Made by a program: the position numbers and the translations under genes. The notes under the pieces were generated by a model that was not told the origin of the DNA, ran no database searches, and was given only the letters and a program-made list of their open reading frames with translations. This document shows positions 512 to 56,200 of a stretch of DNA of 64,000 bases, piece by piece. Source of the DNA: Octopus vulgaris. Lineage: Eukaryota. Each line of letters begins with the position of its first letter. The first letter of the stretch is position 1. The stretch is taken from contig OX597825.1 of assembly GCA_951406725.2 (NCBI GenBank), positions 52,824,001 through 52,888,000 on the forward strand, written 5' to 3'.

Positions 512-700
512 AGTTAATCCAAACAAGAAAACACAGCAACGCGAGGACGTGGAACAATTAAAGTATTATTTGACGCTCAGGAAAGAAGGGAAGGAGGGTT
601 TAACGTTTCGAGCGGAGCTCTTCGTCGGAAACAAGGAGAAGGAAAGATCGCAAGAAGGGAAGACAGAGGAAAAAAATACTTTTGCTGGTGGTGCTCAAGA
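512..700 (-). mobile_element. Short non-autonomous Penelope-like (pLTR-type) element with a hammerhead motif
   Basis: Minus strand ~598-632 reads GTTT-CCGACGA-A-GAGC-tcc-GCTC-GAAA-CGTT-AAAC: stem I, core, stem II, GAAA, palindromic stem III. Boundaries approximate. Confidence 0.65.
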
Positions 701-1439
701 GATCACATGTTGAAAGAACAGAAGTTGAGAGGTAGATGAATCATGATTTTTAAAAACAAGAGAGTTTCAAAGACAAGGAATGTGTGTGGGTGCGTGTGTG
801 TGTGTGCAAGGATGACAAGTGTGTTTGTGCGTGCGCGGGTGTGTGTGTGTATGTATGGTGAATAATAGGCATAGCAAGCTAGCTGTCATAAAGGAGTGGC
901 ACTTGTTGTATCCAGCCAGGTCAAAACCAGGTAAAAAAACAAAGGGGTATATATGTGTGCGTGTAAGTATATGTATCATGTGTGTGTTGTTTGTAGTGTG
1001 TGTGTGTGCATGTGTGTGTTCGTGTGTGTATGCGTAGAGTTTGGGTGTGTGGCGAGTAACTGTGCTTAACCTAGTGTATGTGTGCGTGTGTGCTTGTGCG
1101 TGCGTGTGTGTGTGTAGGGATGTATGTGTGGGTTCATTTGTGTGAGTGTGTATGTATGTATGTGTATGTGTGTGCGTGTATGTACATATACATACATACA
1201 TACACACATATAATTTAAAGGTTAATATGTAACTGTAAATACCTTGCAACGTTGCAACTGCTACGGTAATTATTAACTGGTAATTGAATGGTAAATGTGT
1301 AAAAGACGATGATCCTAGAATTAAAAGTGAAAGAATTAAAAATAAATAATTAAACGTGAAAAGATGAAAGTCAGCCTATTATATCACATTACAATATAGA
1401 TGTTATTGTTTTACTTTTGACATGTAATACCAAACCAGT

Positions 1440-1582
1440 TTAAGAGATTTCTCTGGGCCCATATTAGGCAAGAAGTTGAAACTTTTTTGGCCCATGACAC
1501 TCCATTACTCAAGTAATGCATGTATAAAATTTGAATGAAATCAGTTGGGTAGTTCTCGAGTGTCAGTGATGCACACATTCTC
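1440..1582 (+). mobile_element. Possible non-autonomous Helitron/Helentron-type fragment
   Basis: The motif 'aaatttgaatgaaatcagttgggtagttctcgag...cacacattctc' resembles subterminal motifs of invertebrate non-autonomous Helentrons; followed by (GA)n. Confidence 0.35.
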
Positions 1583-1663
1583 AGAGAGAGAGAGAGAGAG
1601 AGAGAGAGAGAGAGAGAGAGAGAGAGAGAGAGAGAGAGAGAGAGAGAGAGAGAGAGAGAGAGA
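1583..1663. repeat. (GA)n microsatellite
   Basis: Perfect AG tract. Confidence 0.97.
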
Positions 1664-2152
1664 TGGCTGTTAAGGTCGAATTAACCTGGAACATGTCTGT
1701 AGTTGTCACCATTTCCTAATAATCAGACACATTCTCTTTTTCAATCCATTGTTGTTGATTCATTCGAATTAAATTAAATCTCCTGTCTTCCTTGATCAGA
1801 ATTTCTCATCAATATTATAATTGTTCTCATCACTAAGAGCCTTTACTATAATTAATTTTAAAAATTCTTGACTAGCTGCATCTGCTATGATCCAGTCAAT
1901 AATTTAGTGTTTTGTATAACTGAATAAAGCAACAGAAAGGAAAAGAAAACAAATGTTAACAAATCCTTGAACTGCATGCAAATATGAATATCTTAAATTT
2001 GACATATAGTCAAGGCAGTAATGTGTAATGACTGAGGCATTTTCCTAAATATTCCTGATATAAAAAATATCAAAGAATGTATAAAACAAACACCCAACAG
2101 AATATAAGGAAACTTTGACTCTCGTTTATCATACTATAATATTACTTTCTAG

Positions 2153-52389: not shown

Positions 52390-54594
52390 TACTTATAAAT
52401 TATATAACTAAGCTATTTACATAGGCGTATCTGTGTAGTGGATGAAATGCCGCCGTCGTGCTAAACAATATGCCACTTACCGCCTTATGAACACGAATAA
52501 TGGTTACTCAACATATAGTCCTTAGTGAGGTGTAGATAGTAGGGTTATAACCTCGTAATTTCAGTTTATCTCTTTTCTTTGATGCCCTTTCTAAGGTAAA
52601 TATTAAAAAAAAATTCTTTGCAAATATATTTCCATATATTTTGTGTTAATTCATTTAGGTGATGAGCGAGATTTGGCTGCTATTTCTAGAAGCCAACTTA
52701 TGGAATTTCTCTTGTCATAGGGTATATTTTGTTTGAGACATCAGAGGACGCAGCGTTTGAGCGCACATCTCTTTATATCTTAAGATAACCTTGCAATATA
52801 AAAGGGAGCGCGCAACTCCTTATAATTTAAATTAACAACGCAAGCTATCTTAAATTGGGGATCAAACAGTCTGAGGTTTTTCTTTTCTTTTTTTGTTGTG
52901 ATATCCATCATATCAGCGACAAGGAAGTACGGCTACGGCCATAACAAATATAATATGGACAGCAGCAGATGCAGTTCTCGGCACACCAACACGTGATCTC
53001 GTCGTTTGTTGAGGCGCTGCGTAATCAATTATTGTCACAATGTTTCTTGATTACAAGTAAGTGAAAACCTATAATCAAAGACGGCGAAGCTTTGTGGGGC
53101 TCAGGGTAATTACACATTGACGTCAATGAAGGATCTCCATTTTCTTAGCTTCAAGTATATGGAAGAAGTAGAATAAGCAGGAACAGTTTTGATCCACTTG
53201 GGTAATGATCGAATCAGTACGATCGCAAATACAAACGACCGAAATGTGGTTCTTCCGAATAGTGTTAGGAGAAACGTTATTCTATTGAGAGCGTAGCCTG
53301 AACATCAGAAAGCGATTTCAGGTAGTATCTCTACTTTCCGAATAGAGAGGTCACAGCTCTGATAGTACGGAAATGCGGTAAGAGTGCCTTAGGAAAGAAT
53401 CGACGGACAGGTTTTACGGGCAAAAAGAAAAATTACGGCAGGAATCCCAGGGTTAGGCCATGTTCAAGATGTTTGGATAACATCTGTGTGCTCGGTTGGT
53501 CTCATTTGGAGTTCGAGCAGATTCATTTAGAGACGGTTGCTTGTGACGGGATCCGATGGAAGTCGGGCTCTAGAACTCTTCTCCATAACCCTTCCAGGAA
53601 TTAAGCGGGTGAAAAAGATGAGTCGAAGTTTTTACATACACAAATAATCCACCGACATAAACATATATACCTGTATACACTGGTTTCAAATTTTAGTACA
53701 ATACCAGCAATTTCCTAGGCATGGTAAACATGATGACGTTGACTCCAGTCTTATTTTATTGAACCTGAAAGGATGAAAGATAAAGCCGACCCCTTTTCTC
53801 TCTCTTCGTGCACACATGCATGCTGACTTTGTGGGCTTTCTTGAAGTTACTTTTGTCCATAAACGTTAGTTCATTTAAATTGTCAGATGTTTCTTCCTTA
53901 CTTCCACTCGTATAAACCCTTATACACTGAAGCAGGTACCTCTTAAACTATTCAAAATCAGAAACATAAAACCTCTGTCTGTCTCACTAAGATAAAAATC
54001 CACTTCTTTTATCGTAAATTCAGCTTACCTCTTCTCTTTGATGCCCTAAAGTAAATATAAAAAAAAGCATTTTCTTCACTAATATCTTCCCATGGAGTTA
54101 ATCAATTTATGTAGTGAGCGAGATTTGGCTGCTATTTCTAGCGGACTTAGTAGCCGCCTTATGGACCTCCAGTTTAGCAAATTGTATAATCAAGAGCAAT
54201 CCATAGGAGATTCCGAAGAGAAACGGCAGAATGTAGTGAATTGTATGGGACTTAATTGATTGGGTACAACAAGCATCATGAGAGAAGAGAGACGAGTGGT
54301 ACTAATGGTTGAGTGGAGATGGTTTGAATTCAGCGAGTTCCAGGATGTAGAGAGAAGACTTAGCTCGCTTATGGCGAAAGACGATCAAGCGTGTAGCTTT
54401 TTACTAGGTACGTTCTAGTATGACTATGTGTGCAGCAACAGCTCCGTTGGAAGCATGATGAGAGGCATAGTCCATTGTGGACCTCTGATGTGCTTCGTAG
54501 TGTAGGTGTCTCGAAACACCGTGTCGCGCATCATCTGATACAAGGTCATACAGAAGGAATAAATAGTTAAATTTTATTTCTAAGTTACTGACAT

Positions 54595-54750
54595 AGGCGT
54601 GTTTGTGTAGTAAGTCGCTTGCTTCCCAACCAAATGGGTCTTATTAAGTCCCACTACGTAGCAACTTGGACGCGTGGCTTGTGAGCGGATTTGGTAGACG
54701 GCAATTGAAAGAAGCCTGTCCTATTTATGTGTGTGTGTGTGTGTGTGTGA
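54595..54750 (+). mobile_element. SINE family B, 5' part with deletion
   Basis: gcttgcttcccaaccaaatggg...gtgagcggatttggtagacggcaattgaaagaagcc. Confidence 0.75.
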
Positions 54751-55863
54751 AGAACGAGGATAGCTGGACCGTGATGAGCTTTTCATTGTGTAGAATTTCC
54801 TTGTGAACTGTACGACCAGCTTCATCATTTAACATTTTTGATGTTTCTTTTTATTCAGTTTTGTCCTTTGTTGCTGTTTTGAGAAGTAACTTAACTTCAG
54901 ACAACTTTTTACAGATAAATTTTTAGACACTTTTTTTCTGAACCTGGCAAGGTATGTAGGGGGTGCAAATTTTGATTTTGCACCTTCTAAAACTTTTAGG
55001 AGGTGCAAGTGCACCACTGAGTCCCTGTTTTCTGGCCATTGATAATTACACACGTGGAGAGACATACTACTGAGACCTACGACAATCTAATTGGTATATG
55101 TATCAATCTGTGGCAGACCCATCACAAGTAGAAAATAACTGTGCAATGTTCATGATGATAATGTCTGTATCTTCTAAATGCCATGAGAACGGAGACGTCA
55201 AATGGCTGCCTCAGCTTTCGAATCTGCGACAGGGATTAAGCGTGAGCTAGCTAAGAGAGACGAGAGAAAAAAGAAGAGAAGAGAAGAGAGAGAGAAAGAG
55301 AAAGAGAGAGAGGGGGTGGGTGGCGGGGACAGAAAGTGCTCGAGTGATATAAACAAGTCTGTACGTAACTGTGTACTGCCTAGTGAAAGAATAAATACAG
55401 AAATACATTTCAGTCAAAATAGTTATCAAGTTACTATTCGGTGGTTTGTCTAAATTAAATACGACAAAGTAGTGAAGCAGTAAAATGTCATCTGATTATT
55501 TTTTGTTATGAAGAGCAAAAGTTTTATGTTGCAGAGAAATCTATTGTTGCAGGGAATAGAAATTTAAATGACTTTGAGATAAATAATTTAAGATCAAAAT
55601 CAAATATAGATCTTGGGGGACTGTGCACTTCAGTTTTGATGACCCCCCACCCCGCCCATACGCAAAAATCAAAAGATGCGGCAAATCATCAGTTTTAAAC
55701 ACCAAATGTAAATAGAACTGGCATGTTATATCGAAGGTTATATGTAAAAAAATCAACAACCTGTACAAATCTGTTACACACGCACACACTCACGTACACT
55801 TAATACAAAAGTCTATGGTCAAGTTTTTGAACTTATATTAAGAGCATTATTATTTTCTGTTCT

Positions 55864-56200
55864 ACCACTACGCCATATGCCCACGGGCATATGGCGTTGT
55901 GGTTAAGAGCGCGGGTTACTGATTCCGAGTTCGATTCCGAGCAGTGACCTGGACAATAATAATAATAATGATAATAATAATAATAATAATAATAATAATA
56001 ATAATAATAATAATAAGAAGAAGAAGAAGAAGAAGAAGGAAAAGAAGAACATCGAAAAATACCTTAGGAATGAGAACCCAGGTTCGAAATTTCCCCAAGA
56101 CACCTGAAGAAGGCTGGAGGTTATATCAGCCGAAACGTTGTGTTAACAACAAAGTTGAGGACAAATATCCTCATAATGTAAATAATGTAAATAATGATTA
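55864..56200 (+). mobile_element. tRNA-headed short element with terminal hairpin and hammerhead ribozyme
   Basis: Hairpin 55864-55903; A box TGGCGTTGTGG at 55892; B box GAGTTCGATTCC at 55927-55938; (AAT)n(AAG)n spacer; hammerhead 56099-56144; taatgtaaa tail repeats. Confidence 0.88.
56099..56144 (+). ncRNA. Type I minimal hammerhead ribozyme (canonical core)
   Basis: GACAC / CTGAAGA / A / GGCTG-10nt-CAGCC / GAAA / CGTT / GTGTT. Stems I and II pair; stem III is the ACGT palindrome (dimer-type); predicted cleavage after GUU at 56139. Confidence 0.8.

Follow-up and report, generated by a model that had tools for sequence, protein, structure and literature searches.

What are the short hammerhead-bearing repeats in a 64-kb stretch of the Octopus vulgaris genome (assembly GCA_951406725.2, contig OX597825.1, positions 52,824,001 to 52,888,000 of the forward strand), and do they belong to coding elements? 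This whole stretch, called the window below, was described in an initial annotation as holding a non-autonomous population of ribozyme-bearing retroelements. Searches of the genome (2.8 Gb in 227 contigs, in which loci are numbered L...) point to a different answer. The short elements are very probably the hammerhead-bearing pseudo-long terminal repeat (pseudo-LTR) ends of five different protein-coding Penelope-like elements (PLEs) located elsewhere in the genome. The families are named F1 (motif at 0.6 kb), F2 (29 kb), F3 (35 kb), F4 (43 kb) and F5 (56 kb, with a second copy at 8.9 kb). For each family search 40 copies were scored and 30 loci fetched, best matches first, with 360-4337 candidates at the first look.

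Five hammerhead families and their coding partners

All six motifs lie where they had first been noticed. The F1 hammerhead (598-632, motif 602-628, minus strand) has the core CCGACGA, a U4C change, with the palindrome ACGT as stem III. F2 (29069-29155, motif 29074-29150, plus strand) is a hammerhead-like fold with an 8-nt core, a long stem II and the stem III ACATATGT. F3 (34972-35009, motif 34975-35006, plus strand) has the core TTGAAAA (U3-A8) and a stem II that is decayed in the window copy, and F4 (43257-43290, motif 43260-43287, minus strand) reads CTGTTGA (A6U). The F5 hammerhead (56099-56144, motif 56104-56139, plus strand) has the canonical core CTGAAGA and lies within the inferred start of an open reading frame (ORF; ATG at 56070); that of the second copy (8889-8932, motif 8893-8928, minus strand) is decayed. 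Two further decayed hammerhead copies are found inside inverted arms, at 28364-28447 and about 34915-34956.

The window was scanned with a type I descriptor having a minimal stem III, and compared with 30 block-wise dinucleotide shuffles. With at most one core mismatch there are four matches, against a mean of 0.17 (maximum 1) in the shuffles, and with at most two there are seven against 1.33; a second descriptor, fitted to the five cores only after these had been seen, found five matches, and none in 50 shuffles. The 35 kb motif on its own is within the chance range of the shuffles under the two-mismatch descriptor, and draws its support from the F3 family, which keeps TTGAAAA in 27 of 30 copies, counted in a separately fetched set of F3 loci. 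A scan of the window against Rfam had no hammerhead among the best 150 of 276 weak matches; the matches were microRNA calls driven by microsatellites, and were rejected. The features of the minimal type I fold (core, GAAA, stems I and II, palindromic stem III) are kept across family copies, with F2 deviating in an additional core base and a weak 10.1-11.1 pair. Each of the five is a genuine minimal type I hammerhead fold and belongs to a repeat family present in multiple copies.

In all five families, longer copies run upstream into a PLE reading frame: a reverse transcriptase (RT) and a GIY-YIG nuclease for F1, F3, F4 and F5, and a decayed nuclease region for F2. For F1, the RT, a CxxxxCxxC linker and GIY-YIG are found about 3.5 kb upstream in three of the six long copies that were extended. 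A Neptune-type RT or nuclease lies upstream of F4 in six of 30 loci, these having been picked for upstream extension. The pattern of the upstream untranslated region (UTR) of F3 has 258 exact matches, and linker and GIY-YIG are upstream in 9/30 loci (five of the nine being one duplicated cluster), with the RT added by locus L389. For F5, 306 exact matches to the junction between an ORF and the head of the element were reached from a loose end that recurs in contigs. The ORF, of Penelope/Poseidon type, stops some 30 bases short of the element and is present upstream in 37 of 40 further loci; moreover, the F5 tail reads in frame into the N-terminus of the ORF in L354, a junction that L434 shares. 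The decayed nuclease region of F2 is upstream on the same strand in 8/30 loci, a count that excludes two further loci with the region in another arrangement. The RT of F2 was not recovered, the extended loci holding only the nuclease and a remnant of the thumb.

Matching the ends to PLE coding elements, as had been proposed, therefore finds a partner for every family, and the suggested link to Penelope-like pseudo-LTR hammerheads is borne out, the ends being attached to PLE ORFs elsewhere. Because all of the ends attach to coding sequence elsewhere, the window copies can be regarded as truncation or solo-end products of five coding lineages. The window had been said to contain no autonomous partner; there is indeed no intact PLE ORF, but the 29 kb copy retains the last PLE codons (28464-28514, plus strand; a weak match, E 0.024, over a shared extent).

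A search with the GIY-YIG family gave 150 matches, mostly to other Neptune-type families, and linked 0 of 30 loci to F3 or F5. Neptune fragments beside F5 in L014 and L169 were rejected as its partner, being nested insertions. An RTE-type long interspersed nuclear element (LINE) at 24.5-27.9 kb was also set aside, being no PLE and having no end in common with the five families. A homologue search aimed at longer forms of the F3 nuclease had none at E 1e-8; a full HMMER search found many.

Clade names are used here on the strength of motifs described in PMC8557442, not of a tree with reference elements. F1 and F4 show the Neptune-type motifs, namely the CX2-5CxxC linker and (TA)n targeting, and F5 has no CX2-5CxxC linker before GIY-YIG, as described there for Penelope/Poseidon. 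The F3 partner has the linker but a divergent RT, and is left unassigned. F2 is presumably Nematis-like by its motifs.

Some related elements may be mentioned. The RT in L389 has an insertion in the fingers region, which we take to be Naiad-like, and a C-terminal nuclease; its relatives include both C-terminal and more N-terminal nuclease positions. Loci L222-L226 (for example L222, 130-5372) contain a sixth family, a young Neptune-type PLE with an upstream ORF, direct pseudo-LTRs at both ends, an intact 781-codon RT-nuclease frame in many copies and a hammerhead-like motif, TTGATAA (U3-A8). This PLE appears likely to be active. Other PLE families with their own motifs also exist in the genome.

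The tRNA-like head of F5

Judged from its sequence, F5 is the pseudo-LTR of a Poseidon-type PLE that begins with a tRNA-Arg-like head carrying A and B boxes, a feature not remarked on in the initial annotation. The plus-strand copy is a solo pseudo-LTR at 55859-56196, with a snap-back at 55865-55882 and 10-base ATTATTTTCT target duplications at 55849-55858 and 56197-56206. Its head, at 55885-55951 (A-box 55892-55902, B-box 55929-55938), is followed by an (AAT)n/(AAG)n tract at 55955-56049. The second copy, at 8807-9085 on the minus strand, has its head at 9010-9085, then a short (AAT)n, the decayed hammerhead and a tail. Both copies start with a 70-78 nt segment with A- and B-box motifs and continue into (AAT)n.

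Of 30 loci picked by the head, 23 carry the hammerhead end on the same strand, no more than 450 nt away; in three, which are fold-backs, the end lies on the other arm, and in four a separate (TAA)n-inserting element intervenes. Among 23 head matches in loci picked by the hammerhead, 18 start within the first four bases of the head. A spacer on the ORF side is absent from these matches and present in five of 37 from head-picked loci. Comparison of the head with 35 tRNA sequences of seven isotypes from the genome placed three tRNA-Arg sequences at the top (57, 55 and 53.5), the best of 200 shuffles scoring 46.5, with the isotype uncertain; a phage search of the head gave one weak tRNA match (E 0.05). 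Since most short copies begin at the head, it likely marks the start of the RNA, and it is a likely polymerase III promoter. The octopus SINEs OR1 and OR2 (short interspersed nuclear elements) derive from tRNA-Arg. F3 has a similar pile-up of 5' ends without a tRNA-like head. The preferred 5' ends of F3 and F5 each coincide with a small hairpin with a two-base loop (AGTC-AA-GACT and TGCCC-AC-GGGCA, respectively), and these hairpins could prime fold-back.

The intervening element is 555 nt long, ends in CTCTCTCACTC and inserts into (TAA)n, often inside F5 (L004, L007, L011, L012, L016, L020); it was rejected as a part of F5. Fragments of an R4/Dong-like nuclease are found near it in L011.

It is worth considering whether the short form of F5 is instead a tRNA-derived element resembling a short interspersed nuclear element (SINE), with the head as its polymerase III promoter. 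The position of the head at the 5' end, where most hammerhead-picked matches start and none has an ORF-side spacer, would fit this, as would its closeness to tRNA-Arg (57 against 46.5 for the best shuffle) and the lack of any TTTT run on the sense strand of L354 (0 in 2,630 bases, against 3.5 expected; p 0.015). This last point is weak, the majority-based and codon-shuffled controls giving p 0.07 and 0.15. Against the proposal, the same end is attached to an ORF elsewhere, and solo and ORF-linked copies have no fixed difference except a short deletion, which was selected by the query and also occurs in ORF-linked copies; furthermore, the genomic hairpin at the same place could stop or fold back the cDNA. 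A SINE-like origin is thus possible rather than probable, and we prefer to regard F5 as the end of a PLE.

In a more far-reaching reading, the pseudo-LTR of a Poseidon-type PLE might owe its start to the capture of a polymerase III promoter derived from tRNA-Arg, in which case the coding RNA of the PLE would be made by polymerase III and each solo end would be a ready-made SINE; alongside it, two successful Neptune lineages would have fixed U4C and A6U with the fold kept. We offer this scheme tentatively, and consider it somewhat unlikely as a whole. A tRNA-headed PLE was not met in the available parts of the literature on PLEs and hammerhead repeats, and the short form of F5 may be catalogued as a SINE in Repbase, Dfam or the supplements of PMC8557442 and PMC13282606. 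If true, a tRNA-headed PLE end would link SINEs to the PLE machinery by a direct PLE-to-SINE transition, some repeats annotated as tRNA SINEs would be PLE ends, and the U4C and A6U Neptune lineages, with their fold kept, would form a natural test of the need of PLE hammerheads to cut.

Core variants and the weighing of alternatives

The families differ in their cores, as had been noticed, with U4C, A6U, an extra U and U3-A8 all being family-level features. CCGACGA is found in 29 of 30 copies of F1, and the canonical CTGAWGA in 29 of 30 of F5. F4 reads CTGT-N-GA in 27 of 30 copies, where N is free (G 19, A 6, T 2); A6U therefore holds for the family, but the T after CTGT in the window copy does not. 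The 29 kb core of the window, CTCGATGA, was earlier taken as that of its family; it occurs in one of 30 copies and is a private decay, the family reading CTTGATGA in 20 of 30. Copies of F1 are 93-98% identical to the window copy and those of F2 only 79-85%; F2 is an old, decayed family. The suspected relationship of the 0.6 kb and 43 kb elements is upheld by the alignment of F1 with F4, in which 28 of 36 columns agree within the fold and 109 of 194 outside it. Pair 4 of stem I is G-C in all 20 CCGA copies and C-G in 41 of 49 CTGT copies, and canonical CTGA versions of the F1-type fold are also present in the genome.

The UUGAAAA core (U3-A8) is listed for a PLE of Schistosoma mansoni (PMC4209133), and the CCGA (U4C), CUGU (A6U) and CUUGA cores were not found in one supplement of that paper. 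In the passages covered, U4C is described from a viroid, with reduced activity, and the natural hammerhead variants of low activity include A6C and insertions near C3; A6U does not occur in those passages. That the elements are exploring non-canonical cores is a conjecture: a single core is canonical, another has been published before and a third comes from an old decayed family. Relaxed selection would fit U4C and A6U as well as innovation does. Lunse et al. (2017) may already list U4C or A6U.

These results bear on the original view, in which five ribozyme elements, independent of each other and non-autonomous, were selected for new catalytic cores. The cores are indeed fixed within families, F3, F4 and F5 have preferred 5' ends, and non-autonomous PLE derivatives have been described (PMC8557442; 10.64898/2026.07.22.740005). 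However, all five ends are joined to PLE coding sequence in other copies, which largely refutes a non-autonomous population; in addition, the window copies are single or inverted, not head-to-tail retrozyme arrays, and F1 has canonical CTGA sisters. We consider this view improbable. Non-LTR retrozymes were rejected likewise, these being head-to-tail non-coding repeats, whereas the copies here are single or inverted and ORF-linked elsewhere. That the motifs are due to chance or pure decay, and the 35 kb element is a miniature inverted-repeat transposable element (MITE), is hardly credible: the motif alone is within the shuffled range and the element is a near-palindrome, but family-wide conservation, asymmetric arms, variable junctions, duplications of variable length and an upstream PLE ORF all speak against it.

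Several points count against reading the short elements as PLE ends of the kind described. A complete master, with 5' end, intact ORF and 3' end, was recovered for none of the five families, and the recovered ORFs of F5, F3 and F2 are broken. Short copies far outnumber coding copies, and some may be re-mobilised on their own. The locus ratios are biased, the loci being the best matches to chosen queries. Rfam makes no tRNA call on the F5 head, and the 5' ends of F3, F4 and F5 DNA copies do not pile up at the predicted cleavage site. An apparent peak of F3 5' ends at that site came from one tandem array, disappeared with a typical reference, and was discarded. Cleavage was dispensable in vitro in PMC11167929; with canonical, U4C and A6U cores present in sister lineages of a single genome, there is a ready panel for testing what PLE hammerheads do.

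Insertion anatomy and comparison with known systems

The F1 copy (512-1215, minus strand) is the 5'-truncated 3' end of a Neptune-type PLE, with a CA/TA-rich UTR remnant and the pseudo-LTR, and abuts (TA)n. F2 (28448-29240, plus strand) is also a 5'-truncated 3' end, here from an old PLE whose UTR contains (CTA)n; an inverted 5' arm (28277-28447, minus strand) with a decayed hammerhead copy precedes it. F3 (34769-35068) is a fold-back solo pseudo-LTR, with a long tailed left arm on the minus strand and a short right arm on the plus strand, between 12-base ATACTGGACAAT target duplications at 34757-34768 and 35069-35080. F4 (43162-43366, minus strand) is the short end of a second Neptune-type PLE, flanked by 10-base CTACAGTATA duplications at 43152-43161 and 43367-43376. 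The inverted arrangements described earlier are thus confirmed in the window copies.

Across the families the 3' ends are fixed and the 5' ends variable, with 27 of 30 copies of F1, 20 of 30 of F4 and 13 of 30 of F2 abutting (TA)n. The hallmarks of PLEs (5' truncation, an inverted 5' copy and an optional tail of 30-50 nt) are all seen. For F3, 26 distinct loci were compared after four duplicates were dropped, and 21 were measurable. One arm is about 50 nt longer than the other in all 21, a flanking repeat of at least seven bases (some within TA runs) is present in 20, and the 26 copies have 24 different fold-back junctions. Because of these asymmetric arms and variable junctions, F3 is considered to be a fold-back formed anew at each insertion, and not a MITE, which would have fixed symmetric termini. 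F5 has two clusters of 3' ends, about 35-40 nt apart; together with the in-frame tail, these match the internal initiation shown for an Anolis PLE (PMC11167929).

The protein of that PLE nicks AT-rich DNA and initiates copying internally (PMC11167929). By analogy, the octopus PLE proteins would nick AT-rich DNA and begin copying at two internal sites near the 5' part of the RNA, and copying through to the RNA start would give a solo end of 150-300 bases, often doubled by snap-back. The short ends would then likely be left by reverse transcription that stopped early or folded back; in F5, the RNA start would coincide with the tRNA-derived head, which likely acts as an internal promoter. Cleavage by the hammerheads would require dimers or the help of protein, and U4C and A6U likely weaken it.

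A density of one element per 10 kb had been estimated, which is correct locally, in the window. In the 700-base flanks of loci fetched for other families, there are six copies of F1 in 433 kb, four of F4 in 393 kb, two of F5 in 351 kb, and none of F2 in 433 kb or F3 in 364 kb, which sums to about one per 34 kb away from the window. Part of the higher density in the window comes from the choice of the families there.

Other features of the window include a fragment at 90-163 (plus strand) that is 76% like the F3 tail, abuts (TA)n and is probably the end of a related PLE family. In the RTE-type LINE (24532-27884, plus strand), two overlapping frames encode the endonuclease and the RT; a truncated second copy (6815-8110, minus strand), about 79% alike, adjoins a 62-bp tandem array at 6044-6754. 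There is a Tc1/mariner transposase remnant (Pfam PF01498) at 33067-33516 and an ORF fragment at 62727-63185, both on the plus strand.

Many truncated PLE ends with minimal hammerheads are already a known phenomenon, and the anatomy seen here (5' truncation or solo pseudo-LTRs, inverted arms, optional tails and target duplications) is as published for PLEs. The minimal PLE hammerheads of Cervera and de la Pena (2014, PMC4209133) resemble those described here in their short stem I, unpaired base after A9, G10.1-C11.1 pair and palindromic stem III, and in being mostly single or inverted copies from truncated PLEs, with many families per genome; in the parts of that paper covered here no tRNA-like head was met, unlike in F5. 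The Neptune/Nematis PLEs of PMC8557442 share with F1 and F4 the CX2-5CxxC linker, C-terminal GIY-YIG, (TA)n targets and inverted 5' copies; the octopus families differ in their family-fixed U4C (F1) and A6U (F4) cores and in the F1 UTR, which is about 3.5 kb long and has many CA/TA repeats. F5 can be compared with PAc, the Poseidon PLE of Anolis (Frangieh et al. 2024, PMC11167929): both lack a linker zinc finger, in both the hammerhead overlaps the start of the ORF and two 3' ends delimit an in-frame tail, and both have AT-rich targets; unlike in PAc, a tRNA-like head with A and B boxes, together with an (AAT)n tract, opens the F5 pseudo-LTR. The promoter of Drosophila Penelope was mapped as TATA-less, internal and LINE-like (PMC2377424). 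The schistosome hammerhead SINEs and non-LTR retrozymes (PMC6765202; PMC7229834; 10.64898/2026.07.22.740005) are also short hammerhead-bearing repeats, the SINEs having a polymerase III promoter beside the hammerhead, and a PLE ancestry has been proposed for the retrozymes. They are non-coding and often in head-to-tail arrays, whereas F5 is an end belonging to a coding PLE, and its fold-backs are head-to-head. Set beside these systems, what appears unusual in the octopus is the tRNA-headed Poseidon end, together with two family-fixed core variants, U4C and A6U.

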